Below are positions 5,404 to 56,256 of a DNA stretch of 64,000 nt, piece after piece. The notes under the pieces are model-generated. The model was not told where the DNA came from, did no database searches, and saw only the letters and a list, made by a program, of their open reading frames with translations. The stretch spans positions 3,981 to 67,980 of the forward strand of contig JYNZ01000005.1 in the NCBI GenBank assembly GCA_001567355.1, written 5' to 3'. Positions within the stretch are counted from its first letter, which is position 1. Every line of letters starts with the position of its first letter. Origin of the DNA: a candidate division WS6 bacterium OLB20. Its GTDB lineage: Bacteria; Patescibacteriota; Dojkabacteria; B142; OLB20. Both the position numbers and the translations under genes were made by a program.

Positions 5404-7023
5404 TACGGATATCCTTTATATGTAACTGCAACGCGGTTCTGCCCTGCCAGGTGTTTTCTGCGAGGCTGCCGACAACGTCAATACTATCACATGCACTGAC
5501 ATCCTGAAACAGATCACCTTTACCAAAACCAAGCAGTTCCAGTTCATGAGTCCCGTCGCTCACTCTGCACTTAAGATGGTCCCTGTCTCGACCGATCGTC
5601 CGGCAGTCGGTAAGCCTCAGGCCCGACAGCTGAAATACAGGCTTGGGGTTTGCCATTCCAAACGGCTCAAGCCGTGCCAGCTGGGTGACAAGATCAGATG
5701 TGACATCCGCCAGGCTGATCTGGGCATCGACCTTGAGCAGCCGCTCACGTAACTCATCTGTCAGAGCCTCGGTTGCGGACTGAAGCAGGATGGACTTGAA
5801 CTCCTCAAGATTATCACGATGCAGTGTAAAACCAGCTGCCTGTGCGTGACCGCCATAACGCATCAGGATATGTGCGGCCCGCTCGATAGCGGCAGTTATG
5901 TCAAAACCGGGAATACTGCGTGCTGATCCCTTTACTGTTGTGCCACTTACGCTGGCTGCTAGTGCTGGCCGGTAATACCGGTCACTGATCTTTCCTGCAA
6001 CAAGCCCGACCACACCTTCTGACCAGCCGTCAGCATGCACGAACAGCAGATCAGAAGAAACATCCTTCAGCTGCTGGTCCGCCTCTGCAAGCATTGTCTG
6101 CGTCAGCTGCTGCCGCTCCGAATTAAGCCGGTCAAGCCGTTGCGCAAGTGACCTGATGGCATCAGCATTGCGGGTGGTAAACAGCCTCACACCATCAAGC
6201 GCATGGGCGATCCTTCCACCGGCATTAATGCGCGGACCGATGGTAAAGCCGAGATGATACGCCTCTGCCTCACGGTGTGATACTCCTGCAATTTCAAACA
6301 GAGCCCTGAGACCTGGATTCGGTTCTGTTCTCATTCTTCTCAAACCGAGCGATACAAGCAGCCTGTTTTCGCCTGTCAGCGGCATCACGTCGCAGACGGT
6401 TGCCAGGGCCACAAGATCCAGGTATTCATCTTCATCGGGCTCTGTCTTCAGGAGTCTGCTATGTCGTGCCGTTATGGCAAGCTGTTGTACAAGTTTCCAT
6501 GCTACTGCTGCTCCGCAGATGTCGCGTCGGGATATGGTGTTTCGGGGTGCCCGGGATGCACAACAGCTGCAGCTGAGACCGGGACGCCCTCGGGAGGCAA
6601 TGTGTGATGATCAGTGATGACAAACTCCAGTCTGCCCGCAAATTTGCTGACAAGTCCCTCATCCCGAATGCCGCAGTCAACTGTTATCACAAGCCCGGTG
6701 CCGCTATCCGCAAGGTCCTGCAGCGCATCCGCATTCATTCCATACCCCTCATCAAACCTGTCCGGGATATACGGAACAACCTCGGCTCCCAGCTTTCGGT
6801 AGAGAAAATCAAAGAGTATCGAGGTTGCACATACACCATCAACATCGTAGTCGCCGAACACAGCAATCTTCGTACCTGCTTTTACTGCAGCCAGTATCAG
6901 ATCTGCAGCTTTTTCGACCTCACCCAGTCCTGCAGGAGCAAGCAGTAACGACTGATCAGCAGTCAGAAAAACGTTTAAGTTCTGCTTCTGTGCGTATGCC
7001 ACGGTTCCATACGATTTGCGCAA
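5387..7023 (-). CDS. recJ: single-stranded-DNA-specific exonuclease RecJ, split into two ORFs (6502..7023 and 5387..6412) by a frameshift near 6520-6540
   Basis: The upstream ORF carries the DHH domain (DYDVDGV, ITDHH). The downstream ORF carries ...LVALATVCDVMPLTGENR and the DHHA1 region. Manual translation shows the third frame reads ...DICGAAVAWKLVQQL..., matching the RecJ consensus YPF..LCGAGVAFKL, so the gene is continuous except for a 1-nt frame change. Confidence 0.75.
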
Positions 7024-25939: not shown

Positions 25940-26137
25940 AGGTATATATTTATTATATTATATTGTACTACTTTTTAATGCTCCTGAAAAGGGTTAAAAC
26001 CTTGTCATGCAACGTTATCTGAAGTAGACTGAGTAGTAAACCCGTAGCTTCGGGTGTACTTAGTATGCATGCACTAACCGTTACTCAATACTGTCTTGCT
26101 GCACAGCATTAGACGATTGCTACACAAAACACTGCCC

Positions 26138-32041: not shown

Positions 32042-35000
32042 CATTCATAAACTGAAGCAGAAAATCTACAGCCCGGCAGTCCGGATATTGCTTGTTGCGG
32101 TTGTTCTGATCATGCCAGTTGCAGGTATTACCGTGTTTCCTGCTGATGTATCAGCAGCTCAGTGGCTTGGCGACAGCTGGGGCTACAGGCGTGAGATCAC
32201 AATTACCGGCAATGGATCCGACCTGACTGATATTCAGTACCAGCTGACAGGTATTGATACCCAAGCGCTGTACACAACCGGTAAGCTCCAGTTCAACTGT
32301 GAGGATGTCAGGTTTACAAATGCAAACGGTGCCCTTCTTTACTACTGGATCGAGGATGATGACACCGCCTGCGGTGAGGATACCAGCACAGACTTCTGGA
32401 TCAGACTGCCACGGGCAGAGACCGAAGGAACCACAGTGTACATGTACTACGGCAACCCTGCTGCCGAACCGTACAGCTCGGGTAGCAATACGTTTCATTT
32501 TTTTGATGATCTCAACAGTTACAATGCACCCTGGTACGACCTGAACTGGCCATCGAGAGTCAGCTTCAAGGTTAATCATTCAAAAGTCGAATCATCTTCC
32601 CTGACAGATTTTCCCGTTTACTTTGATCTTTCGTTGCTGGGAGACGACTTCTGGAACAATGTGGATCCTCAGGGAGACGATATCGTAATCACCGCAGCAA
32701 ACGGAACAACAAAACTTTCCCGTGAGCTCGTTTCCCTAAACACCGGTACACAAACTGGTCAGCTATGGTTTAAAGCACCTCAACTGTCGGGCACAGAAGA
32801 TACGCTCTATTACTTATACTTTGGCTACAACTCTGCTGCCGAAACTAATGATACCGGTACATGGACAAATTATGCCAGTGTACACCACCTGGAAAGTGAC
32901 CCCTCTGGCAGTGCGCCTCAGTTTACAGACAGCTCAGCAGCAGGACTCAATGGTACGTCAGGCGGCACAATGAATTCCGGAGATCTTGTCAGCGGCATTA
33001 TCGGTAACTCAATCGAATTTGACGGTGTAAACGACTATATCTCAATCGGCACCAATGCACTGCATGCGTATACAAACAATTTTTCAGTTTCTGCATGGGT
33101 AAATCTGAACACGTTATCCACCGGTGCTCAGCATGTTTTCGGAACATACGGAGGGCGCTGGGTAATTCAGGAGACCGACGGATTATTCCAGTCAAATTCA
33201 TTTACCTCTGGGAACAATATTATCAGCTCAACCTCGAGTACGGGGTGGGTACACCTGGCTATGTCAAAGCGAAGTTCGGGAACAGGATCAGAGCTCTTTA
33301 TCAATGGCCGTTCGGTGTCCAGTTCGTCAGCGACAGCAAACATATCCAATGTTACGAACACCTCGACCCAGATCGGCAGCGACTCGTTCAGCTACCCGGC
33401 CAGAAGTACCGATGGAAGGATTGACGAGGTACGGTTTCACACCACACCGAGAACTGCAGGCTGGTTTGCCACAGAGTACAACAACCAGTCGTCTCCCGAA
33501 GATTTTCTCACTATCTACTCGGTTCAAAGTTCGAATGCATCCGGAACATCAATGGATAATTTTCAGCTTTCAGGTTCTCCCCAGTTCAGCAATGGCACGG
33601 TCTCACTGTCTGATGCGTCAACTGTCGAAGGTATTCAATCCGATGCACAGTTTGGTATCAACAGCAAGGCCATCTTCAGAGCGTCGCAATCAACCACAGC
33701 ATTGCAAACCGGCAGACTGGGTTTCAGCAACAGTGCGTTCCCGACAGGTTTTACCAGTGACGATGCAGCAATGATATTGCTTAACAGCGGAACAAACTGG
33801 CATGGCGAAAACAGCAACGAGGGTTCTGCTACAACAGCAGCAGGATCAATTGCGGAGACGACAGCATTAAGCGAGTTTGAGGTTGGCTGGCGGACAGGCG
33901 GTGTCGACTTCCGGATCAACAATATCAGCAATGGTGCAATCACTACAAACGTTCCCAATGAGAGCAGTTATGTACGGTTTGAGTCGGATAACACAGCTGA
34001 CACCATTACACTAGACTGGATCGCCGTTGCCGGTTACAACGCTGATCCTCCAGACAGCCAGGTGGTCGGCAGCGAAGAACTGGGGAGCGGTCCGGTACTC
34101 TACTTACCACTGGATGAAACATCCGGACAGGAACTCGTCAACAGAGGATCAGGTGGCTCTGCCTTAAACGGTTATCTTGGCAACACAGCTGCAGCATCAA
34201 CCGCAGACCCTCGCAGGATCAGTGACTGTATATCAGGCAACTGTCTCAGCCTTGATGGTACAACCGACATGTTTCAGGTCAATGATCATAATCTGCTCGA
34301 CTTCGGCACCGGAGACTTTACACTGTCACTCTGGATGAAACCCGGTGACCAGGCTGGAGGGAACACAAACTATTCCGCTGTGTTCATCAAGGCATCCAAT
34401 CCTTCACCACCGTATGAAGGGATGACGGCATTCTTTGATACTCCAATCGCAACTCCTGCCGGAAGGACTACATTCAGGGTAAGCAATGCTAGCGAACTGA
34501 CCTCAAATGCATCCGGCATGGACAATAATACCTGGCGTCACTTTACTTACATTCGCAGCAGCAATCAGCTGCAGATATATATCAATGGGGTTCTGGACAG
34601 CACGCTTAACATCTCTTCGCTCAATATTACAAATACCGCCCCGCTCCGATTCGGCTCTAACCATACCTCCACAACAACACAGAATTTCTACGGACTGATG
34701 GATGAGATCAAAGTCTGGCCCAGAGCTCTTTCTCTGTCAGAGATACGTGAGCAATACAACGAGAACGCGTCCGTGCTTGGCAGTTCTGCTAACAGTACAC
34801 TTGATGGTCTTGCGGGCTGGTGGAAGATGGATGATGCCAACTGGAACGGTACTGCAGGAGAGGTCCGTGACAGCTCAGGACTTAACCTGAACGGTACGAC
34901 CGTCAACGGAACAGGTTTAACCTCAGGGATAACACACAGAGCAGCCTCTTTTGATGCAACAAATGACCGGATTGACCTGCCTGCTTCATCGGCACTTGAT

Positions 35001-38000
35001 TTGCAGCGCCTCTCGATTACTGCGTGGATTTATCCAAATGCACTGGATCAGAATGGCAATATCTTTACAAAAACCACGAACGGATCCGATAACACCCAGT
35101 ATCTCTGCTTTCTGCAGGGTACCCCCTACAACACACCACGACTGATCTGGAGAACGGTCAATGGCGCGACGTCCTACGATCTGCATGTCGATATTTCATC
35201 GACTCCGATTACAGCCAGCTCATGGCACCATATTGCCTGTACCTATGACGGATCATTCAAGCGTATATACGTTAACGGAGAACTGGAGGCAGAAGTCGCA
35301 TTCTCCACCCCGATCAACACGAACGCAGCAGGAATAAGCAGAATCGGCTCGCTTGGTGGCGGATTTGTATTTAACGGAAGGATCGACGACGTACGGGTCT
35401 ACAACAGAGGGCTCAGTGAGGAGGAGCTTTACGAAGTCTATACCTACCAACCCGGTCCGCTCGCCCATTGGAAGTTTGACGAGCAGTCCGGAACGACTGT
35501 TTTCGATGATACACTCAACACCTTAAACGGCAGCCTGGTGAACATGGACGACAGCAAGCGGATACAGGGACGTTCAGGCAATGCACTTGATTTTGATGGT
35601 ACCGTGGATTATGTGTCATTCCCAAGTGACAGTATTTTGCCAGCAGGAAATCAAAGCAGATCGTTGAGTTTCTGGGCACGACCGAGAACCCTCGCAAGTG
35701 GCGACAGGTATTTTTCTATGGGGAACTGGGCAGTCGGCAATTCGTTTGATGTTGTCTCTAATGTCAGCAACAGAATATCGGTGGTGGGACATACGAATAA
35801 CTACATAAGTACTGCATCTGTACCCCTTTCCACCTGGACTCATGTTGGTATAGTCCTTAACGGGACTAACCTGCGATTCTATCTTAACGGGAAGCTTGAC
35901 TCATCCCATACCGTATCGCTCAATACAGTAGCCGCAGGAGAGTTCCGCATCGGCGGATCGCTGCCGTCACGAGGTGCGACAGACTATGACGGATACATTG
36001 ATGATATGCGGATTTATGGCTATGCACTCACACAGACAGAACTAGTAGCCCTTTGGCAACATGAAGCTGGAATACATGCCGCTGATGATTCCGCAGACCT
36101 CTACGCCTACTGGAAGTTTGATGAGAGCACATGGACCGGTATATCATCAGAAGTACATGACTCATCAGGCAACAGCAACCACCTGACAGCATTTAACGGC
36201 GTTACAACAACCGGCGACGCTGTCTTTGGCAGAGCCGGCAGCTTCAACGGCAGCAGTCACTATCTCAGCGGTGCCAGTTTTAATGTTACCGGTGATTACA
36301 GCGTGACCGGATGGTTTAAGACCTCAATGGCCGCAGACGGTGATGTGATCGCACTCACATCAGGGGGCAACCACGGAATCCTGATTGAGAAGTCATCCAG
36401 CGTGGCTTCACCACCACACAGTCTGCGCTTTCTTCACCGAAAGCCAGTCGGAATAAGCGGTGGACAGAACCTGCAATCTAATCGAGCCGTAAATGACAGC
36501 ACTTGGCATTTTTTTTGCTGCCGTCCAGTCAAGTACCTCACAGATGGAGTTATACATTGACGGAGCATTATTGACTTCAACCACACCGACAGGCACCTTT
36601 AATGACACATTAACTGCAACAATCGGCAGAATAAGCAACCTTAGTTCTGCACGATACTTCAGCGGTCAGATAGACGAAATCAAGGTATGGAAGAAGGCAC
36701 TGTCCGCAGAAGACGTAAGCGGAGAGTACCTGCGCCAGAATCTAATAGCCGGTTCAGAGAATGACCGTTCGCCTGTACTCAAGCATAACTTTGATCAGAA
36801 GTCAGGTACATCTGCGCTTGACTCATCCGGTAACAGCTTCAATGCGACGCTGTTCAACATGGACAGTACCAACTGGGTGAAGGGTAAAAGCGGGAATGCC
36901 CTGCTGTTTAACGGCTCAAACGAATACGGAACAATTGCCAACCAGACACTGCTTAACTCAACAGACTTCAGTGTATCAGCCTGGTTTAAAACGACCAGCA
37001 CATCACAGGGCAGAATACTGACAAAAGAGTCAAACACCAATGGACGTCAGCGATATTCGCTCGGAGTAAACGTAGCACTGACCGGACGCGCTGAAGTCCG
37101 GTTTGATAGTGGGACTCCAGTAATAGCTCAGAGTACATCCACCATCAACGACGGTAACTGGCATCACATTTTGGGCACGTTCAGTGACTCCAATAATCGA
37201 TTGAGACTTTACATTGATGGCAGGCTGGAGACGACTACTACAACAGCGCTAACTCCTGAAGCAAGTAGCAATCCCGTTGACATCGGCAGATTTGACGGAT
37301 CCTTTGGACATTATTTTAATGGTACGATCGATCAGATCAGATACTGGAACCGTGAGCTGACACCGCGTGAGGCAGTGATGGAATATTCCGGTGGTTCAAC
37401 GATCGCCTGGTATAAGTTTGATGAGAACGAAGGTAACACAGCCTATGATCACTCAGGTAACGCTGCACACGGTACATTATCCAACATGAGCCCCGCATCT
37501 GACTGGCAGGATGAAGCGAACTGTCAGAACAACGGCTGTCTCAGCTTTTCAGGAGGAAACGATTACATTGGTCTTACGAACGAGTCACTGTTTGACTTTG
37601 AACGCACCTCACAGTTCAGTGTCTGCACCTGGGCACGGTTCAATAACATTACTGATACGTCGCACACTCTGGCTGGCAAACTGGATGGCACAAACAGGGG
37701 CTGGGAGTTTACCGCGTACGATGGTGCGACGGGATCGGACGGACTGCTGGTTTACCTGATCAGTACATGGCCATCCAACAGGATTACTAATATCTACGAC
37801 AATGCTCTGAGTGCAAACCGCTGGTACCATCTCTGCCTCACATATGACGGCAGCGTCACGAATGCCGGCGTCAAAGTCTATCGTGACGGACAGCTGCTGA
37901 CGCCGACAAGCACTACAAACACGCTGTCAGGCACTATGCTGCAGAATGCCCCGGCGTATGTCGGGGGCCGGACAGGCGGTTCCGGAAACCTGGGCCATAA

Positions 38001-38100
38001 TGGCAGAATGGATGAGATGAAAATATGGAATTACGAACTGACACAGGAAGACATTAACAGGGAATATACATCTAACGGTGCCGCGCTGCGCTATGAATAG
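32034..38100 (+). CDS. giant secreted surface protein B (paralog of A; ~2,020 aa if the frameshift at the T8 run 36509-36516 is corrected)
   Basis: The start ATG at 32034 overlaps the gene A stop (ATGAATAA). Same architecture as A. Two ORFs (31953..36560 and 36493..38100) overlap at a T8 homopolymer; removing one T gives a continuous LamG repeat ...DSTWHFFAAVQSSTSQMELYIDGALL. The C-terminal tail NREYTSNGAALRYE is conserved. Confidence 0.7.
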
Positions 38101-41100
38101 ACACTTCCGACAGCTGAACAGACGGATCCACAGTAAAACTGCCACTGTTGTGATGGTGCTCATGGTTATTGCAACACCGCTTTTGAGTATGACTGTTTTT
38201 CCTGCTCCGGCAGCAGCAACGGGCTGGCTTGGTGAACAGTGGGAATACAGGCGTGAGATCACGATCAGCGGTAACGGCAGTGACCTTACAGATATTCAGT
38301 ACCAGCTTACAGGAATCGATACTCAGACTTTGTACAATGAGGGGAAACTGCAGTTTGACTGTCAGGATGTCCGATTCACTAATGCGTATGGTGCTCTGCT
38401 GCATTTCTGGATCGAAGATGACAGTTCGTCATGCGGGGTTGATACCTCGACCGACTTCTGGATACGACTGCCGCGCGCTGAAGCTGAAGGTACAACTATA
38501 TTCATGTACTACGGTAATCCCCAGGCACCGGCATACCTTAGTCCCGAGCGTACCTTCGACTTTTTCAGTCAGTTTTCCTCGTTCAGAGTACCCTGGTATA
38601 ACAGTGCCTGGCAGAACAGACTCAAGATCAGTATAAATCGCGAGAAAGTGAGGGGTACTATTCCCAATTTTCCGGTAGCACTCGATCTCTCGATTCTCGG
38701 ATCGGCATTCTGGCAGAACGTTGATCCGCAGGGAGACGATCTGGTGATTACAGCAGCTGACGGAACTACAAAACTAGCCCGTGAACTGGTTACGATAAAC
38801 ACCGGGACAGAAACAGGGACACTCTGGTTTAAAGCACCGGTTGTAACAAATGAAGAAGATACCGACTTCTACCTTTACTACGGAAATCCTGCTGCCACCG
38901 AGACCGATGATACTGCCACCTGGAGCGGTCACGGACTGGTTCAGCATCTTGAAGAATCTCCTACAGGCAGCGCTCCTCAGATAACCGACAGTTCGGGGAG
39001 CAACAATAATGGAACTACGAGCGGGTTTGTTTCGGGAGATCTCGTAGATACTGTAATCGATAGCGGACTTAACTTTGACGGGAACGATAACGAGGTGAAC
39101 AGTGGCATCCCGTTTGCATCGGTCACTAACAACTTCAGTTACTCCTTCTGGGCGTATCCCGAATCCACACGGACCGAGACAGTGCAGGCCAACAGCGGTA
39201 TTACCGGAACAAGCGGCCAGCGGTTTGTTGTCTACCCCGAACACGGGGGCGTGGCTTTCGGCTCAAATGCACGTGCAGGTGCAGGCGTCTCATTCGGGAC
39301 AAACGGAATATCTGTGTTTGAACATTCCGGATCCTATCTGCCATCTCTGCTCGTCCACAATCACCCGTATACCGGCTGGACCCATGTCGTGGTTGTATAC
39401 AGTGCAGGGACACCAGTTCTGTACGTTAACGGAAAATTCGTTAAGACAGGTCTCGCAAGTACCAAAACGGTGCACCCGGGTGCGTCTCTGGCAATCGGAG
39501 CATTCGGTAAATTCGACGGACTTGTTGATGAATTCCGTGTCATCAATTCTGCAGTCACACCCAACTGGATATCGACCGAGTACGAGAACCATTCATCACC
39601 CGAGACGTTTTTTTTACTGTCAGTGAATCGGTTTCTCAGGTTAATGATTCATCAGTTCAGTCGTATCCGCCCGATCCTGCAAGTGCAGATCCTGTCTGGG
39701 TGTACAACGGCACCCCGGATACGCTTGATGGAACGGTTGTACTGCAAGACGTATCGGGAGTTGACCGGTTCAGATCTGAAGAAACATTCGCGGTAAACTC
39801 AAGGCTCATCTTTCGCGCAAGACAGACAGATGTTACTCTCAACAGTGCGACAGCAGGTTTCAGCAACAGCGAACTCTCTGCTGCGGCAACCGCTGATGAC
39901 GCGGCAGTCAGACTGTTTGACAGCTCCAGTGGAGGTAATTTTGAACGCACTGTGGTCAACGAATCCGTTTCCACTTCTGGAACAGGCTCTCTGCTGGAAG
40001 ATACACAATTCCACGATTTTGAGATCGGCTGGCGTTCCGGTGCGATTGACTTCAGGATAGATAACACGTCAGACGGCACCCTGAGTACAAACGTACCAAA
40101 TGAACCATCTTATATCAGGTTCGATAACAACTCAACGTCGGTTTTATTCCAGGTCGACTGGGTTGCAGTTGCGAACTACCATGATGATCCGCCTGACTCA
40201 CAGGTTGTCGGTTCAGAACAGCGTTCTGATCGTCCGGCAGTTTACTATCCTCTGAACAGAAATCAAACAAACAGTCAGATCGCTGATGAGTACTTCAATA
40301 CACGACAGCATAAACTGACACTTGGATCGACAAATCAATCAGACAGTGCTGATCCTGTCTGGTCAGATCAGTGCATTAAAGACAGCTGTCTTCTGTTTGA
40401 CGGTGCAAATGATTTTGCCGGTCCCATCACTGATGGACAGTTTGCGTCTGTCTCAAATACTTTTTCCATGTCAATCTGGGCACATCCGACTGCAACACGC
40501 GTTACAACTGCAGAGGCAAATGGTAACAACTTCAGCGCAGGTCACCAGCACCGGCAGGCAATTGCGGCAAGTCAGGGCACCCTTTTATATGGCAGCGGCA
40601 GGGTTAGCGCAGGATTGTCCGTCGGGACTAACGGTGTCAGTGTGATTGAGCATGGATCCTCATACTTCTCCACTCCGCTCGTGCACGATATGGCATTAAG
40701 CGGCTGGAACCATATTGTTGTTGTCTATGAAAACAAGCAGCCACGCATCTATGTAAACGGATACCTTGTTCATACCGGCATCACCAGCGACCGTACCGCA
40801 ATACATCCCAGCAACTATCTTGGTGACACACAGAGCAATTACGGTACGTTTAAAGGTTTCCTCGATGAATTCAGACTGTATCCGCGCGTTCTGACAGAGA
40901 CTGAGATACGGCAGCAGTATAACGAGGGTTCATCTGTCCTGGGTGTCTCGACTGGTGGCAGTGCTTTGAGCAACGGCCTTGTCGGCTGGTGGAAGATGGA
41001 CGAGACTGCGGCAAACCAGTGCAGCGGTGGTGTCAATGACAGCTGCGATTCTTCGGGCAGCGGCAACGATATGGCCTGGGCTGGTAATACTTCAGCAAGC

Positions 41101-44100
41101 GGCGGCAAATACGGTAATGCAATGCTGTTTGACGGCACGGATGATTACATGCGCAGGACATCACCGTCAAATATTCCGACAGGCGCGAGCCCGCGCACCG
41201 TTTCAGCCTGGGTACATCTTAATGCTCTTGGCACAAAACAGGCTATCTTTCAATACGGACCGATCGGGGTCACCCGCAATACGCTGCTTTTGAATATCAG
41301 CGCTGCAAATGTTCCGGAGTTTACTTCATGGGCTGACGGCGCGACATCATCCACTGCTCTCTCAACCGGTGTCTGGTATCATCTCGTTGGCACCTACGAT
41401 GGTGACCTGACGATGAAGATCTACATCAACGGTGAGCTTGATACCACGCATACGCTTGGCGGTCAGTTGATCTCCACGGTTGATGCAACAGGTATTAATA
41501 TGGGTGCCTGGCAGGCCGGGATACTTGATGACCTCAACGGCAGACTTGATGATGTCAGGCTCTACGACCGCGAACTCAGCGAGGTTGAGGTACAGGAGTT
41601 GTATGGTTACCGTCCCGAGATGCTTGCCCACTGGAAATTTGACGAGAAGTCAGGGACAACCGCATACGACAGTACGATCAATGCCAGAAACGGCACACTT
41701 ACAAACATGCAGAGTCCGGGCTGGATAAACGGCCGGGTCGGAGGAGCACTGGAGTTTGACGGGACAAACGATTTTGTATCGGTCGGTACTCAACAGGCGT
41801 TTGCCTTTCCGCTGAGTTCATCCTTCAGCGTTTCAGCATGGATAAACCCCGCGCTTGATTCGTCCGATGACGTGATCATCGGCAATGCCTGGGATGAGGC
41901 CGGCTGGCATATGCGGGTAACCTCAGCAAACAGAGTGCGATTTATTGTGCTTACGAACGGCAGCAATAACACCTACTCTGATACAGCTGTCCTGTCTGCA
42001 GGCTGGAACCATGTTACTGCCATCTGGAACGGAAGCACTGTGAAAACGTATCTCAACGGAGTTGAAAGCAGCAGTGTTGTGAGTAACGGAACAGTGTCCA
42101 CCATTACTCCTGCAAATCCGCTGCTGATCGGAAATGATATTGCTGACCAGTCACACTACTTTAACGGTACAATTGACGATGTCAGGATCTGGAACTACCA
42201 GCTGACAGATTCAGAGGTCTACAAGGTCTTTCAGGGCGATTCACAAAGCAGCTCACAGTCAGGATTATATGAACGAACAGTTACGCTTTCATCAGCAACC
42301 CCGCTCGACAACTATCAGGTGCGTATTGCCCTGACAGGCTTTGACTACAACAAGGTACAGGCAAACGGCGAGGACATCCGATTCTACGCGGGAGGTAATC
42401 AACTGGATTACTGGATCGAGACATGGAACACTTCCGGAACATCAGTGATCTGGGTCGAGGTACCCTATGCAGGGACCAACGCACTGTCAATGCAGTATGG
42501 TGATGCCTCTGCAGTAGCGGGATCTGACGGCGCAGCAACGTTTATCTTTTTCACTGACCTCTCCAGTGATCCGGGTCTTACCGGTACTAACAGTGCCAAC
42601 GGATACGCAAATTACGATTCGGCAAATGATGATATTGTCTATTACTTCAGACGTGATACCTCATCACTGGTTAACCGCTATTTCGATCTGGGTATGACTA
42701 CCGATCCCACAAACATTGCAATTGATTTCCGCTGGCGCAGAACGTCGCAGCAGCTAAATCAGTTTGGCGACGCATTCGGTTTCATTGGTATATCAAAAGT
42801 CACAGTACCCGGGACAATCATGGGATACAATTACATCAACGATACCGATAGTGCACCAAACGCATTCTTCAGAGGCGCGTATAATGGAATTGCCGGCGGA
42901 TCCGGTATCAGCTCAAATACTACGACCTATCAGGTTTCAAGCGGAATTGACGGCACCGATGCTGAGATGACAGCCTGGCAGAACGGATCTCAGGTCATCA
43001 ATTCTCCCCGTACGATTACCTCTGATGCCGGGGGCTACTCGCGCTTTAATATCTACCGGCAAAACTATGGTAATGCACAGGACTTTAACAACCACGTCGC
43101 CCGTATTGATGACATCCGGATCAGAAAGTTTTCCGCCTCAGTTGAGCCACTGACAACAACCGTTCAGGCAGAAGGGATTGCCCTCTCCTCTGTCAACGTT
43201 ACTGCAGAGCAGACGTCATCCCCGTCTCTGATGCTCAATCTCGACAGCAAGTCCGGAACAACTGCAACAGACAGTGGAACGCTCGGAACAAACGGCACGC
43301 TTACCAATATGGATGACAGCAACTGGGTACGCGGCCGTTTCGGAAGTGCTGTAAACCTTAATGGTACAGATGAATTTATCAGCGTTGCTAACTCAACAGC
43401 ACTGAATTCAACTGATTTCTCTGTTTCCGCCTGGATCAGGACCACCAGCTCAGGTGTCTCCAGAGTGCTGACCAAGGAAGGCAACACAAACGGTCAGCAG
43501 CGTTATTCACTCGGCACCAACGTATCAGTTGCAGGGCGTGCCGATGTCAGTTTCTACGGTACCTCAGTAAACACAGCTCAAAGTACATCTACAGTAAATG
43601 ACGGTGAGTGGCATCACATCCTGGGCACATTCAGTGACACAAACAATCGCCTGCGTATCTACGTTGACGGAGTTCTTGAAGCGACGACAACCACTACGCA
43701 GACGCCGGTTGCAAGCAGCAATCCGCTTGAGATCGGCAGGTTTGACAGTGCTGCAGGTCAGTACTTTAACGGCAGCGTCGATCAGGTCAGGTACTGGGAA
43801 CGAGAACTGAGTCCGCGAGAGGCAGCAATAGAATTCGACGGTGGCAAGCCTGTTGCATGGTATAAATTTGATGAGATCGAAGGCAACACTGCATATGACC
43901 ACTCCGGAAACCAACTGCACGGCACACTCTCTAATATGAGTCCATCCACAGACTGGATAAACGGTAAAATAAACGGAGCTCTTGATTTCGATGGCTCAAA
44001 TGATGGTGTCGACCTGCCGGAAAACTCTATACTGAACTTCGGATTCAATGATGAGGTTACCGTTTCCGCCTGGGTAAAACCTACAGTACTCGGTGATGAT

Positions 44101-44514
44101 TACATATTCAGTCAGCAGAGATGTAACGGGGGTGCCATACAGCTCTATATCACCTCGCTTGGTGCAGCGATATTCAGAGTGCAAGACACTTCCAGTAACC
44201 AGACATTTGCGATATCGGACAACAGCCTGATTCAAACAGGAAGCTGGAATCATATCGTTGGCACGCGGGATAAGGAGACAGATTCTCTCCGGCTGTATGT
44301 AAATGGCAATCTAGTTGAAGATCTGGTGGATAACACCCTCACAACAATAACAAATGCTTCAACAGAGAACTGGGTCGGAAGAAGGTACCCGTGTGCTCTG
44401 ACTGATAACATTAATGCAACGATTGATGAGGTGAAGATCTGGCGCTATGCTCTCATACAAGAGGATGTCAGCAGAGAGTATACTGCAAACGGTGCAGCGC
44501 TCAGGATTGAGTAG
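38093..44514 (+). CDS. giant secreted surface protein C (paralog of A/B; ~2,140 aa if the frameshift at the T8 run 39608-39615 is corrected), with three DUF2341-like modules
   Basis: The start ATG at 38093 overlaps the gene B stop (ATGAATAG). ORFs 38078..39796 and 39700..44514 overlap at the T8 run. A third DUF2341-like module lies about 42250-42560 (...QVRIALTGFDYNKVQANGEDIRFYAGGNQLDYWIETWNTSGTSVIWVEVPYAGTNALSMQYGD). C-terminal tail SREYTANGAALRIE. Confidence 0.7.
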
Positions 44515-50582: not shown

Positions 50583-50885
50583 TTGCGCCTGTTGCGCGAG
50601 AAGCTTTCGTTTCGCAGGTTCTTTTCGGTTATGATTGTCATCTCCCTGGCTGCACTCACTTTGGACAGGATTATGTTCCTTGTGCTCGTTCTCCTGCAGG
50701 ACACCGACATCCATCTGTCGACAATCAGGCTTGTCTCTGACCTGACCATACTTGTATTAACGCTCTGGCAGACGCTCTATCTGCGTGCGCTGCTGATGCG
50801 ACTGCTGCGTGGCAAGTCGGAACGGCTGATTACGCTTTCGCTGCTGTATTACTTTATACTGCTGCTGCTGATTAACGGCCGCTAG
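50583..50885 (+). CDS. small hypothetical membrane protein (3 TM)
   Basis: 100-aa ORF with three hydrophobic helices. Confidence 0.35.
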   Translation: MRLLREKLSFRRFFSVMIVISLAALTLDRIMFLVLVLLQDTDIHLSTIRLVSDLTILVLTLWQTLYLRALLMRLLRGKSERLITLSLLYYFILLLLINGR

Positions 50886-52131
50886 CGGTTAAGACAGCCG
50901 CACGTGCCGCTCCCGAAAGTCCCGAACGCTCAATGGTGGTGATCTTTACTCCGGGTTTATAAATATGTGTTGACCGCGCGCTGATTCTGTCTGTGAATCC
51001 GGGAAGATTATGCGCAACAGAACCGTCAGCAGTAACCTGCAGCGGCTCTGAGAATCCTTTGAATAATGCCGCGCCGGCGAGCTGAAATGCCACAACATCA
51101 GCTGCCCGGTCGCGCAGAAATACCGACAGTTCATGCATATGGTTGCGCCGGTGTTCTGGCAAGGTCAGTTTCTCGGATTCAAACGCTCCCCAGTCCCTGT
51201 TCAGAGCGCTTGTCAGCGCGCCTGTCTGAAGCGTGCTGATCGCATTAATTGTCTCATGGTCACAGTCTCCGATCATACACAAACCCATGATCAGAAGCTG
51301 ATACAGATATTTGCCGCCTACCTGAAGTTCTGACGGCTTGCGCAGCTGGATATTTGTTTTGGGATCGACATCAAGCTTCAGCAGTCTGCGTTCGATATCG
51401 TTGGTAAAAGCAGTCAAAAGTGCAGGATTATGCTCGCTGAGAAGCGGTGAACTGTAAAAACCGGCTTCAGTATTATAGAGATCACCTTCTGCATCGGTAA
51501 CGCCAATATTGTAACCTGTTCCCGCGATAAATGATGCGTGGACTCCAGGGCGGGCAAGCATCAGCGCACTGACATCATTGAGTGTTACCCAGCGCCGTGC
51601 CGAGATCCCGATCTTTGAAAATGCTTCACGCATATAGGCAGTGATATTGATATCCGAGTCTGCAATGACAAACCCTTTACCCCATTCCGGTCCAAGGTCG
51701 CTGCGGTCTGCGTCGATATTATCACCTGTCTGGACAATCCTTGCCGGAAATGAGTATACGAGTGCAATGACATCGGGATCATGTCCCTCTACTGCCATGC
51801 GAGCCACGTCTGCAAATCTTGCCGTGTAGTCCGCGACAGTCATAAATCCTCCGGTAAACTCAGCTTCTTGGGGCGAAACTGTTTCGTGCAGATCCTGATC
51901 AAACCTGAACATCGTGGCTCGCATGGTGCTGCCGCCGACATCAAGGCACAGGACCGACAGGGGATCACCTGACAGTTCTGACTGTCTGACAAAGGCAGGG
52001 AACATAGGTAACGTACTGTCTCTGCCGGCTGCACCATCACGCGCCTGGGACGCAAAATCATGCGCCAGTTCGTTCATCACATCGACGGGGAGTTCCTTAA
52101 AACCTGGATCAATTACGGGTAATGTGTCCAT
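50872..52131 (-). CDS. hexokinase-family sugar kinase (ASKHA superfamily)
   Basis: LCLDVGGSTMRATMFRF (hexokinase LDLGGTNFRV phosphate-1 motif), VYSFPARIVQ...WGKGF (sugar-binding region), VTLNDVSALMLA and ASFIAGTGYNIGV. The start at M30 (MDTLPVID) was chosen to avoid overlap with 52157..52990. Confidence 0.7.
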   Translation of the reverse strand: MDTLPVIDPGFKELPVDVMNELAHDFASQARDGAAGRDSTLPMFPAFVRQSELSGDPLSVLCLDVGGSTMRATMFRFDQDLHETVSPQEAEFTGGFMTVADYTARFADVARMAVEGHDPDVIALVYSFPARIVQTGDNIDADRSDLGPEWGKGFVIADSDINITAYMREAFSKIGISARRWVTLNDVSALMLARPGVHASFIAGTGYNIGVTDAEGDLYNTEAGFYSSPLLSEHNPALLTAFTNDIERRLLKLDVDPKTNIQLRKPSELQVGGKYLYQLLIMGLCMIGDCDHETINAISTLQTGALTSALNRDWGAFESEKLTLPEHRRNHMHELSVFLRDRAADVVAFQLAGAALFKGFSEPLQVTADGSVAHNLPGFTDRISARSTHIYKPGVKITTIERSGLSGAARAAVLTASGR

Positions 52132-52156
52132 GGACAATTGTAGCTTTTGAATTTGT

Positions 52157-52990
52157 TTATAACAAGAAGAAGTGAACCTGCTCCGGCGAAAGCTCTGATA
52201 GCGTCTCGGATGTGTCAAAGTTTACGGTAAGGGTATAACCGTCAGGGCTTCCGGCACGTTCTGGATCCTTCTTCAGTGTGCCTGATCCGACATAATACAG
52301 ATCAGGCTGTGAGGGATCCGGGATCACCTGTGCAAAAACAGGCCGGTTTTCTGCAGCTGCGCTCTGCATCGAGGGGATAAGCTGCGAAAAGGCGAATACG
52401 GTAGATGACCCTGACTCTTCTGTGCTGACAAGACTGGCGTTTTCTGCTGATACGGATATCGATACATCCTGGGCGGCAATAGTAATGTCGCCAGCACCAT
52501 CCCCTACACTTACGAGCTGCGGTCTGATATATATCTTACGGTCAGGGTAAAAGGCCCAGACCGTATTGGCCCTGAGCAGTTCCTCTTCAGAAACTGTACC
52601 CTGCGATCCTATCCCTGCCGTAGACAGGCCTGCCAGCGACGGGAAACTGCCGGACTTCTGTGCTGTTACAAGAACCTTTGCAACGCAGGTGTTACAACCC
52701 TCTTCAGCATCATCCTTTACACCGTCGCTGTTTTTGTCATAAAAGACAACCGCTGTCCGGTCTGTTGCACCCATGACTGCAGCAGGAGCATCCTGCTGGT
52801 CGTCAGATGTCTGTCCCTCTGCCGGAAGCTCGTCAGGCACTTCTACACCCTGCTCCTGCTGCTGAATCTCATCAGACTGATTAATCTTTCTTACCTGGCC
52901 AAGATTTACACTTACTGCTGCAACTATCAGCAGCACCAGCGCTGCAACTGTTTTCTGAAACGAAGATAACGAAGAAAGCCGTTCTTTCAT
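52157..52990 (-). CDS. secreted hypothetical protein
   Basis: 277 aa with an N-terminal signal/TM (VAALVLLIVAAVSVNL) and no recognisable domain. Confidence 0.45.
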   Translation of the reverse strand: MKERLSSLSSFQKTVAALVLLIVAAVSVNLGQVRKINQSDEIQQQEQGVEVPDELPAEGQTSDDQQDAPAAVMGATDRTAVVFYDKNSDGVKDDAEEGCNTCVAKVLVTAQKSGSFPSLAGLSTAGIGSQGTVSEEELLRANTVWAFYPDRKIYIRPQLVSVGDGAGDITIAAQDVSISVSAENASLVSTEESGSSTVFAFSQLIPSMQSAAAENRPVFAQVIPDPSQPDLYYVGSGTLKKDPERAGSPDGYTLTVNFDTSETLSELSPEQVHFFLL

Positions 52991-53088
52991 AATATTTGTA
53001 CTACATCACAATGATTAAATCGCAGGGGCGGACTAGAATGCTACCGTAACTCACACGAAACTGCCTGCTTAGTTTAGCAGAAGTTGTT

Positions 53089-53763
53089 ATGTATTCACTA
53101 CTTATCGTCGAGGATGATGCGCGATTGTCTGCATGTATCTCTGAGTACCTGCACGGATATCAGGTATTTACAGAATCGACTGTCAAAGGTGGTATCCGGG
53201 TTGCCCGTAACCGCCAGGTCGATGCTGTCCTGCTCGATCTTCAGCTCGGGACTGAAAACGGACTGTCGCTGCTCAAACATCTCAGGTCTGATCTCATTGA
53301 GACACCTGTACTCATCCTGACATCTGATGAGACAACAGACACAGTATGCACTGCCATGCAGCTTGGTGCGGATGGATATATGACGAAACCATTCAGCATG
53401 CGCGAGCTTAAGGCTCGAATTGATGCACTTCTTAACCGGCCTCCACTCACACGCAAAGATATCATTGCGGTTCACGATCTTGTTCTTGACTGTAATAACT
53501 GTCAGGTGCGGCGCGGAAGGCAGACTGTAAATCTGCGCAAACGGGAGTTTGAGATTCTCAGTTACCTTGCACGTCATCAGGGCACTATTGTTACGAGACA
53601 GCAGCTGATCAGTAATGTGTGGGACAGCTACAGCGAGCCATATGCAGGAACGATCGATGTTCATATCAGCAACATCCGCAAGCAGCTTCGTTCAACCTTC
53701 GGCACTGACATGATTACGACAGCGCATGGCCTTGGCTACCAGGTACATTCACGAAAAGTGTGA
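53089..53763 (+). CDS. two-component response regulator, OmpR/PhoB family
   Basis: REC domain (LLIVEDD...D55-like LLDLQLG...K105-like MTKPF) plus a winged-helix trans_reg_C domain (...LRKREFEILSYLARHQGTIVTRQQL...). Confidence 0.85.
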   Translation: MYSLLIVEDDARLSACISEYLHGYQVFTESTVKGGIRVARNRQVDAVLLDLQLGTENGLSLLKHLRSDLIETPVLILTSDETTDTVCTAMQLGADGYMTKPFSMRELKARIDALLNRPPLTRKDIIAVHDLVLDCNNCQVRRGRQTVNLRKREFEILSYLARHQGTIVTRQQLISNVWDSYSEPYAGTIDVHISNIRKQLRSTFGTDMITTAHGLGYQVHSRKV

Positions 53764-53796
53764 CAGAAAATAAAAGAGCTGTATAATACCAGCTAT

Positions 53797-54729
53797 ATGC
53801 CGGTTTCGGAATTTGAAAAAAAACTGCGCAAGTATGCTGTCTACTCTCCCGAGCGGATAGAAGAGGCACCCATTGAAGACATCTTTGCAGGCCACGAGTT
53901 TAAACCGCTCAGCCAGGGTCTGCAGGCTCGAGCCTTTCGCATGCTCGGAACAGAATGGGTGGTCAAGGAGGGGCGCTGGGATCTTGATCTGTCATTCCTG
54001 TTCGGTCAGTCGAACATCCCTATGCCTGCCCTGATGACACAAAAGATAATGCGGATCTTTCAGTTTCAGTTTCTGCCCGATCTGAAGGAAATACAGCATC
54101 AGTACCGTATGTATATGAACTTTGTCCGCTACTTCGGATACTTCCGCAAAGACGATTATTACTATCACCCCAACCGTGACCTGATCTTCTCCTCACAACG
54201 TACAATCCGGGACTCGCTGCTCCTGTACCGACCTGAGATAGAAAAATATTATGATCTGAAGTTTCCGGATAAAATTGAGGAGATCCTGACATCCAGGCTC
54301 AAATATCATAATTTTCTTCCCAAAGAATATCTGCTCTACGGTCCGTCGATCTCGCCTGAAAACAAAGGCAGAATGACTTACTTTATAGTGCAGGACTTTA
54401 TCAAGGGACGACTGCTGCACGATCTTGAAGATGACGATTTTTCAGAGGATGTGATCTATCAGCTCATCATCATGATCTACCTGATACTTCTCATGCGCAT
54501 CCATGAACATCTGCTTCCTGACACCAGACCGCGCTACCCTGTTAAAGAGGCAAGTGACTGGGTTATGAAGACAGACAATATCATAGTCTCAAAGAAGCGG
54601 GTCACGTTTATTGATACACGCTGGTTCTGGGATATGCGTGACAACTGGGTCAAGCGTGGCGGAATAATCCCGGGCCAGATTATCCGGCTCTCCAAATTCT
54701 ATTTACAGCATCTACTTGATCATGTCTGA
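53797..54729 (+). CDS. hypothetical protein with protein-kinase-like fold features
   Basis: 310 aa. Kinase-like elements are ...WVVKEG (beta3-like), HEHLLPDTRPRY (catalytic-loop-like) and VTFIDTRWF (DFG-like). Its stop overlaps the start of the next gene. Confidence 0.35.
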   Translation: MPVSEFEKKLRKYAVYSPERIEEAPIEDIFAGHEFKPLSQGLQARAFRMLGTEWVVKEGRWDLDLSFLFGQSNIPMPALMTQKIMRIFQFQFLPDLKEIQHQYRMYMNFVRYFGYFRKDDYYYHPNRDLIFSSQRTIRDSLLLYRPEIEKYYDLKFPDKIEEILTSRLKYHNFLPKEYLLYGPSISPENKGRMTYFIVQDFIKGRLLHDLEDDDFSEDVIYQLIIMIYLILLMRIHEHLLPDTRPRYPVKEASDWVMKTDNIIVSKKRVTFIDTRWFWDMRDNWVKRGGIIPGQIIRLSKFYLQHLLDHV

Positions 54730-55276
54730 AGCTCTTCTTCTTGCTATCTGGTTTTTTCTGCCAGCCGGTATTGCCAATACAGTCCCGGTATTTGCGGTTA
54801 AAATCCCTGTACTCAAAAACTTCAATGCGCCGCTCGACTTTGGTATAACGGTTGGCGGAACAAGGCTGCTGGGCAAAAACAAGACTATCCGCGGGCTCGT
54901 ATGCGGGATTATTGTCGGTATCCTGATAGTCTGGATTCAGCAGCAGATCTGGATAGGTAATGAGGCTGTCAGATCAGTTATCCGGCTTGACTACAGCTCG
55001 CTCAGTCCTGTAATCCTTGGAACACTTCTCGCTGCCGGAGCACTCGTTGGCGATGCTGTCGAGAGTTTCTTTAAGCGCAGAAGTGGAATTGAACCTGGCA
55101 GAGCATGGTTTCCATTTGATCAGACCGATTATATTATCGGCGGCATTCTGATGACACTGCCGTACGTGCAGCTCAGTATCCTTGAGTATATGCTCCTGTT
55201 TGTGATCTGGTTTATTCTGCACCCGATCTCTACAGTAGCCGGATATCTGCTTAAACTGAAGGATTCTCCGATCTGA
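54716..55276 (+). CDS. CarS/DUF46-family membrane protein (CDP-archaeol synthase-like, within the CTP-dependent cytidylyltransferase / polyprenol kinase superfamily)
   Basis: 186 aa with 5 TM helices. N-terminus LAIWFFLPAGIANTVPV, LDFG...G.R.LGKNKTIRG and C-terminal ESFFKRRSGIEPG...PFDQTDYIIG resemble CarS as recalled. Confidence 0.5.
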   Translation: MIMSEALLLAIWFFLPAGIANTVPVFAVKIPVLKNFNAPLDFGITVGGTRLLGKNKTIRGLVCGIIVGILIVWIQQQIWIGNEAVRSVIRLDYSSLSPVILGTLLAAGALVGDAVESFFKRRSGIEPGRAWFPFDQTDYIIGGILMTLPYVQLSILEYMLLFVIWFILHPISTVAGYLLKLKDSPI

Positions 55277-55952
55277 CCTTGTAGAACCGTATCAGAAAAC
55301 ACGCCCCCTTTCCTCTGCTGACAGACGTTATCCTGGCACCGAAACGGTCACGCAGCAAATCCTTTGCCAGCGACAACCCCATCCCCCTGTCCATCCCTTT
55401 GCTGCTGATTCCTTTCCGGAACAACCTGCTTTGGATTTTTTCGGGTATACCCGGCCCGTTATCCGTGATTTCTATCTGAAACCATTCTCTGGTTCTGCGT
55501 GTGCGCAACAGGACATATCCCGGATCACTGACGGTCTCAAGCGCCTCGAGGGCATTCTGAATAAGGTTACCGATTATTCTTCTGAACAGCGTAACCTCGC
55601 CCGCAATCATCCTGTCGTCATCATATTCTTCAAGCAGCCTCACGCCACGTGCTCCGGCAAAGGGCCCGTACATCTCGGCAATTGCGTGCAGCTCTGCTGC
55701 GACAGAAAAGACGGTCTCATCAGAATTTCCGTTCAGCATCCTGCGCGTTGCGATGACCATTCTGTTAAGATTGTTGAGATTTAGCGCTGCCGAGTTAAGA
55801 ATGTCTGCAATGTACTGCTGCTGGTCTTCAGTCAGTGTCGAGGATGCGCGATCGAGCTGGTACTGAATCACAGTCAGAGGACTTGTGATATCATGCAGAA
55901 AACCTTTAAACTCGTCCTTAAGGCTGAGCTCAGGGTCTTTGGTCTGTTTCAT
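55251..55952 (-). CDS. cytoplasmic sensor histidine kinase (HisKA + HATPase_c, no TM or sensor domain)
   Basis: H-box FLHDITSPLTV, N-box IGNLIQNALEA, G1 DNGPGIP and G2 GMGLSLAK. Confidence 0.8.
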   Translation of the reverse strand: MKQTKDPELSLKDEFKGFLHDITSPLTVIQYQLDRASSTLTEDQQQYIADILNSAALNLNNLNRMVIATRRMLNGNSDETVFSVAAELHAIAEMYGPFAGARGVRLLEEYDDDRMIAGEVTLFRRIIGNLIQNALEALETVSDPGYVLLRTRRTREWFQIEITDNGPGIPEKIQSRLFRKGISSKGMDRGMGLSLAKDLLRDRFGARITSVSRGKGACFLIRFYKVRSENPSV

Positions 55953-56029
55953 GGTTTATGTAATAACTGCTATTCAGGCAGTACACTGAGAATAGCGTGT
56001 CTCTCAATTCTGCGCATTGTGCCGGAATA

Positions 56030-56066
56030 CAAATATGGAATAAATCGTGTCCTGTTGCTATAATTG
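56030..56066 (+). promoter_or_regulatory. candidate promoter for tRNA-Arg (TATAAT at 56061-56066)
   Basis: TTGCTATAAT lies 37 nt upstream of the tRNA 5' end; no clear -35. Confidence 0.25.
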
Positions 56067-56102
56067 GCTTCTGCCAGAACGTCTCCGGCAGCAGATTTTT
56101 AT

Positions 56103-56175
56103 GCGCTGATAGCTCAATGGATAGAGCAACTGCCTTCTAAGCAGTAGGTTGAAGGTTCGAGTCCTTCTCAGCGCA
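56103..56175 (+). tRNA. tRNA-Arg (TCT), CCA not encoded
   Basis: Acceptor GCGCTGA/TCAGCGC, anticodon stem ACTGC/GCAGT with loop CTTCTAA, T-arm GAAGG-TTCGAGT-CCTTC. Confidence 0.85.
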
Positions 56176-56256
56176 GATCTTCCGGTATCTGCATTATCTC
56201 CGTTTATGTTGACATGGTGCGTCGCAACACTTACGCTGGAGGTGTATCAGAACATA

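Follow-up and report, generated by a model that had tools for sequence, protein, structure and literature searches.

What does a protein with kinase-like features do directly upstream of a bacterial membrane protein that resembles an archaeal lipid enzyme? This question is raised by two adjoining genes in a 64-kb window (by which we mean the whole stretch of DNA that was analysed, 64,000 nucleotides of contig JYNZ01000005.1) from the candidate division WS6 bacterium OLB20, a tiny and host-dependent member of the Dojkabacteria. The first gene, here called KIN (53797..54729, forward strand), is an open reading frame (ORF) with an ATG start codon that encodes a soluble protein of 310 amino acids, and the second, the CarS-like gene (54722..55276, forward strand), encodes 184 amino acids when translated from the ATG at 54722, or 186 if the TTG at 54716 is the start. 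An earlier note, made from the sequence alone, had read the pair as an unusual step in the phosphorylation and activation of a polyprenol or lipid carrier, possibly for envelope glycan assembly. We find KIN and its CarS-like neighbour to be an operon that is conserved in bacteria of the candidate phyla radiation (CPR) and belongs to glycerophospholipid head-group metabolism, and propose, with a probability of about 0.4 for this explanation as a whole, that they are a salvage pair of kinase and cytidylyltransferase which would put new head groups on scavenged lipids.

Both ORFs were present on the forward strand as described in the earlier note, and all of the motifs quoted there (HEHLLPDTRPRY, FIDTRWF, PAGIANTVPV, GKNKTIRG, ESFFKRRSGIEPG and PFDQTDY) were found in the translations. 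The public annotation of the same organism has an identical CarS-like protein (P0121, 100% identity, 184 amino acids) beginning at the ATG at 54722, and the overlap between the KIN stop and the CarS-like start is thus 8 nt (54722..54729, forward strand, ATGTCTGA), the 14 nt given previously being correct only when counted from the TTG at 54716. The G+C content is even around the locus (~48-52%). No fusions of the two genes were found among the homologues, in which KIN matches are at most 381 amino acids long and CarS-like matches at most 225.

Gene neighbourhoods were compared in 42 unique loci, drawn from a scan of GTDB species representatives (39 loci), look-ups of three homologues and the window itself; ORFs were called with genetic code 25 where needed and clustered by BLAST, and partner genes were detected with hidden Markov models (HMMs) on six-frame translations at distances of up to 10 kb. 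The loci make up three groups of 14 each: Dojkabacteria-type, code-25 Gracilibacteria, and Peribacteria together with others. A CarS-like gene is within reach of KIN in 32/42 loci, a cytidine diphosphate (CDP)-alcohol phosphatidyltransferase also in 32/42, and at least one of the two in 35/42. Apart from a generic ATP-binding cassette (ABC) transporter family (7, 1 and 1 loci), these are the only families found in all three groups, with the other neighbours confined to one group each, and the linkage is kept in at least four gene orders and at KIN identities of 32-45%. In the Dojkabacteria-type loci the transferase gene lies on the opposite strand, followed by an optional PHP phosphoesterase gene, KIN and the CarS-like gene, the latter being directly 3' of KIN on the same strand in 14/14 loci and overlapping it by 8-17 nt in 11 of these (taking the longest ORF). 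The arrangement is not a chance feature of the OLB20 genome, and the co-occurrence that the earlier note had put forward for checking turned out to be tight and conserved.

The other two groups have their own gene orders. In the Gracilibacteria, genes for a PGA_cap protein, KIN, an optional membrane protein, the transferase and the CarS-like protein follow each other on one strand, with a phosphatidylserine (PS) decarboxylase gene on the opposite strand, and in the Peribacteria KIN is found on mixed strands with a possible glycosyl hydrolase (a sub-threshold Pfam match), the transferase, PgpA and the CarS-like gene. The predicted type of transferase differs as well, since it is PssA- or archaetidylserine-synthase-like and adjoins a clear PS decarboxylase in the Gracilibacteria, resembles archaetidylinositol phosphate (AIP) or phosphatidylinositol phosphate (PIP) synthase in the Dojkabacteria (NF040950, 165 bits against a cutoff of 180), and is PgsA-like (100 bits against a cutoff of 109) and accompanied by PgpA in the Peribacteria. 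Because the head-group type of the transferase varies by lineage, KIN follows the common step, the making of a CDP-activated lipid, and not any one head group, and because the recurrent neighbours are CDP-alcohol phosphatidyltransferases, PS decarboxylase and PgpA, the context is that of glycerophospholipid head-group metabolism. These neighbours speak against the activation of a polyprenol or lipid carrier for envelope glycan assembly, as a polyprenol link was seen only for two distant paralogues with less than 30% identity (near UppS/BacA and PMT_2/Wzy_C, see below). What stands of that proposal is the order of reactions, lipid phosphorylation followed by cytidylyl activation being plausible, and what falls is the pathway that they would serve.

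With regard to the upstream protein, KIN has no Pfam match at E 0.1 or better, no NCBIfam match, and no sequence relative in the PDB according to a profile search. There are 123 homologues, of which the few organism labels present are all from CPR bacteria. An exhaustive profile search of 1.84 billion representatives gave 87 matches, comprising only the family itself, a broadened profile search gave 125 matches, none with a precomputed Pfam domain, and ten distant relatives had no meaningful Pfam match either. Judged from these searches, KIN represents a new family of small size, with all members seen coming from bacteria that are either CPR-labelled or unclassified. Profile HMMs for small-molecule kinases (APH, choline kinase, Kdo/WaaP, RIO and ABC1/UbiB) matched neither KIN nor the ten distant relatives, there was no match of KIN to DgkA (PF01219) or DgkB/DAGK_cat (PF00781), from which the fold differs too, and HMMER and single-sequence hhalign gave no significant relationship to minimal or atypical kinases. 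The hhalign comparison with protein kinase A (PKA) placed KIN residues 33-51 on the Gly-rich loop (45-63), a stretch of 19 residues at 5% probability.

An AlphaFold2 (AF2) model of KIN (mean predicted local distance difference test score, pLDDT, 90.7; predicted template modelling score, pTM, 0.89) was compared with the PDB using Foldseek, and essentially all of the top 50 matches were protein-kinase-like folds (probability ~1, best E 1.4e-3), including CK2alpha, OspG, AceK, PknG, PKR, Ark kinases, PINK1 and APH(3'). This agrees with the kinase-like fold proposed in the earlier note, but membership in the kinase fold class is predicted at the superfamily level only, because the E-values are marginal and the template modelling (TM) scores of 0.27-0.36 normalised to the query denote a weak similarity. 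In 38 sequences, down to 20% identity, only K57, Q199, D242, N261 and D273 are invariant, and K57, D242, N261 and D273 correspond to the Lys/Asp/Asn/Asp set of kinases in canonical order and at the canonical structural positions. The predicted nucleotide-binding elements of the N-lobe (53917..53967, forward strand) contain G41 and R45 as an analogue of the Gly-rich loop between strands 35-40 and 44-49, and K57 is the strand-3 lysine, in WVVKEGRWD. The predicted catalytic core (54520..54615, forward strand) consists of D242-T-R244-P, a 14-residue insertion, N261, strands 262-264 and 269-271, and the DFG-like D273-T-R-W; D242 comes directly after the strand following the long helix 217-237 (helix E), N261 directly before strand 262-264, and D273 directly after strand 269-271. 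The D242-T-R244-P sequence parallels the D-L-K-P loop of protein kinases, with the 14 extra residues preceding the Asn, and the two motifs singled out as kinase-like in the earlier note correspond to D242, the Asp of the catalytic loop, and to the DFG-like D273, which are both invariant across the family.

Other parts of the protein set KIN apart from the classical protein kinases. In the AF2 model, strands 3 and 4 are separated by ~110 inserted residues that form helices, and the chain ends 37 residues after D273, which leaves no activation segment and no helices F-I; KIN has none of the features by which Pkinase members are recognised (activation segment with APE, helices F-I, Pkinase HMM). 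Among its best Foldseek matches, OspG, Ark1/ArkI, AceK and APH(3') share with KIN a bilobal kinase core, the Lys/Asp/Asn/Asp set and the absence of an activation segment, and the TM-score with OspG rises to 0.54 when normalised to the 169 residues of OspG, whereas the ~110-residue insertion between strands 3 and 4 and the 14-residue insertion in the catalytic loop distinguish KIN from all of these. The best description of KIN is that of a new family within the protein-kinase-like superfamily whose members are putatively competent for catalysis.

The downstream protein was more readily classified. It matches Pfam PF01864 with 101.9 bits (cutoff 22, E 5e-29), with residues 5-184 aligned to positions 3-173 of the 175-position model, and gives a partial match to PF01148 (the CdsA family, CTP_transf_1) of 28.6 bits, with residues 42-125 on model positions 153-230 of 264. 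The NCBIfam CarS equivalog NF003114 scores 134.2 bits, which is under its cutoff of 148, so that equivalogy with CarS is not supported, whereas the NCBIfam CdsA model NF008635 reaches 19.6 bits against a cutoff of 385. A sequence search of solved structures gave a single match, the Aeropyrum pernix CarS (5GUF, E 5e-13, ~29% identity), with which the protein has in common the stretch G-D-x3-S-F-x-K-R-R-x-G-I-E-x-G-R ... D-Q-x-D. The AF2 model (pLDDT 88.5) has five long hydrophobic helices (2-25, 56-79, 96-120, 132-145 and 153-176), in line with the five transmembrane segments of the earlier description, and the top Foldseek match is again 5guf (E 1.1e-5, TM-scores 0.66/0.76, root-mean-square deviation 4.0), with the Thermotoga maritima CdsA (4Q2G) a distant second (TM-score 0.42, E 0.2). 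The cytidylyltransferase signature G110-D111-x3-S115-F-F-K118-R119 ... D133-Q134-x-D136 (55049..55129, forward strand) is located on the cytoplasmic side in alignment with the same residues of A. pernix CarS, and its residues are invariant in 34-36 bacterial CarS-like proteins.

The bacterial CarS-like branch gave 1349 matches, of which the best 120 are at least 49% identical to the window protein; named sources among these best 120 are Dojkabacteria, Saccharimonadales and Ktedonobacter, and many of them are already labelled 'CDP-archaeol synthase' by their sources. The product of the downstream gene is, by both sequence and model, a predicted CarS-type integral-membrane cytidylyltransferase with its catalytic signature intact; the family assignment of the earlier note was correct, but it is already visible in the databases. 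The Ktedonobacter-type (Chloroflexi) gene (L046:5215-5769) encodes a product with 49% identity to the window protein and is a solitary gene, without lipid genes in its vicinity.

How these two proteins could work together is suggested by what is known of lipids in CPR bacteria. These bacteria are without complete lipid synthesis, and the lipids of CPR-rich small-cell fractions, all acylglycerols and 31% lysolipids, are thought to be derived from other organisms (PMC7242380). In Saccharibacteria the head-group steps via CDP-diacylglycerol remain and could run 'if provided' phosphatidate (PMC6031116), and Vampirococcus and a Gracilibacteria bin have no phospholipid synthesis, yet encode phospholipases (PMC8080830, PMC9530719). 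In our proposal KIN would be an ATP-dependent lipid kinase that makes phosphatidate from a neutral glycerolipid acquired by scavenging, which would be diacylglycerol or possibly monoacylglycerol. The CarS-like enzyme, in place of CdsA, would use this phosphatidate and CTP to form CDP-diacylglycerol, from which the linked transferases would make lipids with serine (decarboxylated afterwards to give phosphatidylethanolamine), inositol phosphate or glycerol phosphate as head group. More tentative still is the fuller claim that the Dojkabacteria, Gracilibacteria and Peribacteria have in this pair an unrecognised two-enzyme entry to phospholipid synthesis, in which a new kinase-fold lipid kinase is joined by a bacterial CarS that acts on fatty-acyl phosphatidate and replaces CdsA. 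As for CdsA itself, an Escherichia coli CdsA query matched the CarS-like ORFs alone, and weakly, in the ~760 kb of loci, a sample too small to prove absence of the canonical enzyme.

Several observations weigh against the salvage proposal. The substrate of KIN is proposed through guilt by association, the structural similarity to kinases is weak (see the TM-scores above), the D-x-R-P loop resembles that of Ser/Thr protein kinases more than those of known small-molecule kinases, and the folds of the diacylglycerol kinases known from bacteria are different. Substrate discrimination is reported for both archaeal CarS and bacterial CdsA, with the Archaeoglobus fulgidus CarS failing to complement an E. 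coli cdsA mutant, and since archaeal CarS prefers geranylgeranyl substrates and discriminates against fatty-acyl phosphatidate (PMC9385802), the proposal has to assume that enzymes of the bacterial clade accept phosphatidate. At the level of gene content, neither partner is within reach in 7/42 loci, and five Dojkabacteria-type loci have a DgkA homologue two genes from KIN, because of which a second diacylglycerol kinase may be redundant there. Similarly, the Saccharibacteria have a cluster of the transferase, an optional PHP phosphoesterase and the CarS-like gene without KIN, and KIN is thus not obligatory for CarS function.

The alternative that survives best, although we consider it unlikely, is that KIN makes no lipid intermediate at all but, as a minimal protein kinase or an ATPase switch of the kind represented by OspG, Bud32 or RIO, would bind or phosphorylate the CarS-like enzyme or the transferases and thereby regulate them. 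This would fit the protein kinases among its best structural matches (CK2alpha, OspG, PknG, PKR and PINK1), the similar truncation of OspG and the Ark kinases, the likeness of D242-T-R244-P to the D-L-K-P of Ser/Thr kinases, and the large hydrophobic rear surface of CarS, which according to a review could bind other proteins (PMC9385802). It sits less well with a protein that has neither an activation segment nor the substrate-binding helices of the C-lobe, and it would be unusual for a dedicated protein kinase to stay beside a lipid enzyme through several gene orders in three lineage groups. Overlapping and possibly translationally coupled genes suggest 1:1 partners in a pathway, and the presence of distant paralogues in other lipid-linked contexts is easier to reconcile with a lipid substrate than with a single protein target.

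These distant paralogues also bear on a second alternative, in which the pair acts on isoprenoid lipids, KIN phosphorylating a polyprenol or archaeol-like alcohol and the CarS-like enzyme activating the resulting isoprenoid lipid phosphate. Four distant KIN relatives (<30% identity) lie outside the CarS/transferase context: one (L050:6001-6855) is located between a fusion of acylphosphatase and undecaprenyl-diphosphate synthase (UppS) and BacA, another (L051:6001-7071) is in a PMT_2/EamA/Wzy_C cluster, a third (in L052) adjoins an APH-family kinase gene that has no detectable relation to KIN, and the fourth has no informative context. The first two hint that some branches of the family may act on polyprenols, and support for isoprenoid substrates could also be seen in the enzyme being of CarS type and not CdsA type, given the geranylgeranyl preference of archaeal CarS (PMC9385802), and in a Parcubacteria genome reported to encode geranylgeranylglyceryl phosphate (GGGP) and digeranylgeranylglyceryl phosphate (DGGGP) synthases (PMC7852524). 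Within the clade of the window gene, however, the partners are PssA-like proteins with PS decarboxylase, PgsA-like proteins with PgpA, and PIP-synthase-like proteins; Pfam scans of ~40 window ORFs (about 10 small ORFs being outside the scan) gave no prenyltransferase, no GGGP or DGGGP synthase and no lipid-backbone genes. We know of no CDP-polyprenol pathway. As the lipids of the CPR-enriched fraction are all acylglycerols (PMC7242380), we regard an isoprenoid substrate for the window pair as quite improbable.

Slightly less probable again is a role of KIN as the kinase of a head-group precursor or of a completed lipid, such as inositol, glycerol or phosphatidylinositol. The transferase next to KIN in the Dojkabacteria is of the AIP/PIP-synthase-like type that needs inositol phosphate, and the eukaryotic kinases of phosphatidylinositol and PIP are themselves protein-kinase-like, but the same KIN clade is linked elsewhere to serine-type transferases (with PS decarboxylase) and glycerophosphate-type transferases, serine needs no phosphorylation, and the constant partner is the CarS-like gene. 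Finally, an inherited gene order without functional coupling, with a role of KIN unrelated to its neighbours, would agree with the seven loci without either partner, with CarS-like genes being far commoner than KIN (1349 vs ~125 matches) and with the phylogenetic clustering of the sampled loci, but is very improbable given that rearrangements producing at least four architectures, among KIN proteins of 32-45% identity, have not broken the linkage, and that no other neighbour except the generic ABC-transporter family is common to the lineage groups.

Some further features of the loci were recorded alongside this comparison. A PHP-domain phosphoesterase of ~215 amino acids is encoded between the PIP/AIP-synthase-like transferase and the CarS-like gene, being located between transferase and KIN in L008, L010, L011 and L013, and at L047:5360-6004 in a Saccharibacteria-type locus without KIN; it is a candidate phosphatase for the conversion of phosphatidylinositol phosphate to phosphatidylinositol. 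The genes of 214 and 230 amino acids that flank the CarS-like gene in L047 were considered as a substitute for KIN in Saccharibacteria and rejected, as neither is KIN-like and the 214-amino-acid gene is this PHP phosphoesterase. In the code-25 Gracilibacteria (L004 and L030-L038) a gene for a membrane-anchored PGA_cap protein (237 bits) ends 1 nt before KIN, for example at L004:3953-4999. We take the PGA_cap family to be metallophosphoesterase-like, and the protein could be a phosphodiesterase stripping head groups from acquired lipids; equally, this could be a gene order shared within one lineage. Code 25, in which TGA is a sense codon, was needed for sensible gene lengths in L004, L005, L028, L030-L040 and L042, some of which are labelled Peribacteria in their records.

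Two apparent variants of KIN were found to be artefacts. A fusion of 532 amino acids in L018 and L019 had been read as an N-terminal acetyltransferase joined to KIN, by comparison with the AAC-APH resistance enzymes, and was rejected, since the protein really starts at an internal MMTD... sequence and the N-terminal 220 residues, Arg/His/Asp-rich and of low complexity, come from an in-frame extension of the ORF in the upstream direction. The 'tandem KIN' of L020 and L022 was the same artefact of clustering, and true tandem duplicates of KIN are found only in L014 (8987-10918) and L016 (10001-12066), in both cases with the CarS-like gene following directly.

Upstream of KIN in the window there is a promoter-like site, GTGACA-16 nt-TATAAT (53760..53787, forward strand), which is sigma-70-like with 11/12 consensus matches and is the best in the region 52900-56200. 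It is to be taken as a lead only, as such sites show no excess over shuffled sequence in this region. No Shine-Dalgarno sequence was found before the KIN start codon (53760-53797), and because the site ends 9 nt before the KIN ATG, it suggests that the pair may be transcribed as a leaderless or very short-leader mRNA.

The genes on either side of the pair encode an OmpR-type response regulator (53089..53763, forward strand; Response_reg and Trans_reg_C domains), a family also found 5' of KIN in L006 and L007, and a histidine kinase of 233 amino acids (55251..55952, reverse strand) with HisKA (below the Pfam cutoff) and HATPase_c domains and with no sensor or membrane domain. The histidine kinase gene is convergent with the CarS-like gene, with a 3' overlap of 26 nt, and the same family is found downstream in L006 and L007, which are the closest relatives. 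Both genes are reported as context only, and membership in the KIN-CarS module is not implied. HMMs for CDP-alcohol transferases, PS decarboxylase, DgkA and PHP proteins found none of these in the 64-kb window.

Elsewhere in the window, the ORF at 50872-52218 (reverse strand, 448 amino acids) matches both hexokinase domains weakly (~27 bits each) and has no NCBIfam match, and by these matches is a very divergent sugar-kinase-like gene located 1.6 kb upstream of KIN. RecJ appears to be split at 5387-7023 (reverse strand), with DHH in 6502-7023 and DHHA1 and RecJ_OB in 5387-6412, for which a frameshift, pseudogene formation or misassembly may be responsible. Five consecutive large ORFs at 26096-44514 (forward strand; 1981, 1535, 535, 572 and 1604 amino acids) contain Laminin_G_3/concanavalin-like and DUF2341 repeats, and probably encode giant surface proteins like those of other CPR bacteria.

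What is new here is, first, an unrecognised kinase-like family whose members were seen in no bacteria other than CPR-labelled or unclassified ones and, second, the conserved pairing of this family with a bacterial CarS; the literature search found no paper on bacterial CarS homologues or on the KIN family, which as a predicted new family of the protein-kinase-like superfamily is covered by no profile library. The CPR bacteria are a large part of bacterial diversity and are reported to be without lipid synthesis despite having membranes of ordinary acyl lipids (PMC7242380, PMC8080830). For the entry of acquired lipids into their metabolism, the KIN-CarS locus offers a concrete candidate route of two small genes: the pair may be a way in which CPR bacteria re-use lipids taken from other cells, and if so would explain how cells that synthesise neither fatty acids nor glycerolipids can turn host lipids into membranes with a head-group composition of their own. 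Furthermore, PF01864, which is one of the universal archaeal markers in CheckM (PMC10134863), has a large and well-conserved bacterial branch located in bacterial-type phospholipid clusters, and this bears on how sharply the CarS/CdsA step divides the two lipid worlds (PMC9385802).

Compared with known systems, the downstream protein is closest to archaeal CarS (PF01864, 5GUF), with which it shares the full-length HMM match, the five transmembrane helices, the fold and the signature. It differs in being bacterial (the family branch comprises CPR bacteria and some Chloroflexi), in scoring below the NF003114 equivalog cutoff, and in belonging to a branch whose genes sit amid PssA/Psd, PgsA/PgpA and PIP-synthase-like genes and not among archaeal ether-lipid genes; its likely substrate would be fatty-acyl phosphatidate, which archaeal CarS handles poorly (PMC9385802). 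With CdsA (PF01148, 4Q2G) it has in common the proposed reaction, the position in phospholipid gene clusters and the C-terminal catalytic motif covered by the 28.6-bit partial match, whereas the architecture is different (~260-285 amino acids in CdsA, 184 with five helices here), and neither a full-length match nor the CdsA architecture was found. The CTP-dependent dolichol and phytol kinases are likewise membrane proteins of the CdsA cytidylyltransferase superfamily acting on lipid alcohols, but the window protein matches the CarS model over its whole length, and the enzymes to which it is linked consume a CDP-activated lipid, so that sequence and context argue for cytidylyl transfer and not CTP-dependent phosphorylation.

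For KIN, the proposed reaction (lipid alcohol and ATP to lipid phosphate, feeding CDP-diacylglycerol synthesis) is that of DgkA (PF01219) and DgkB/DAGK_cat (PF00781), a functional analogy only, as their folds are unrelated to that of KIN. Pairs of a kinase and a nucleotidyltransferase are a standard form of salvage, as in LicA-LicC, AmgK-MurU and the Kennedy pathway with its choline/ethanolamine kinase and cytidylyltransferase. As in our proposal for KIN and the CarS-like gene, these systems combine a gene for a protein-kinase-like small-molecule kinase with one for a nucleotidyltransferase that activates its product, and serve the salvage of an external building block. Their substrates are soluble and their transferases are soluble Rossmann-type enzymes, whereas here the transferase is an integral-membrane protein, the presumed substrate is a membrane lipid, and the kinase is by sequence not a member of the APH/choline-kinase family.

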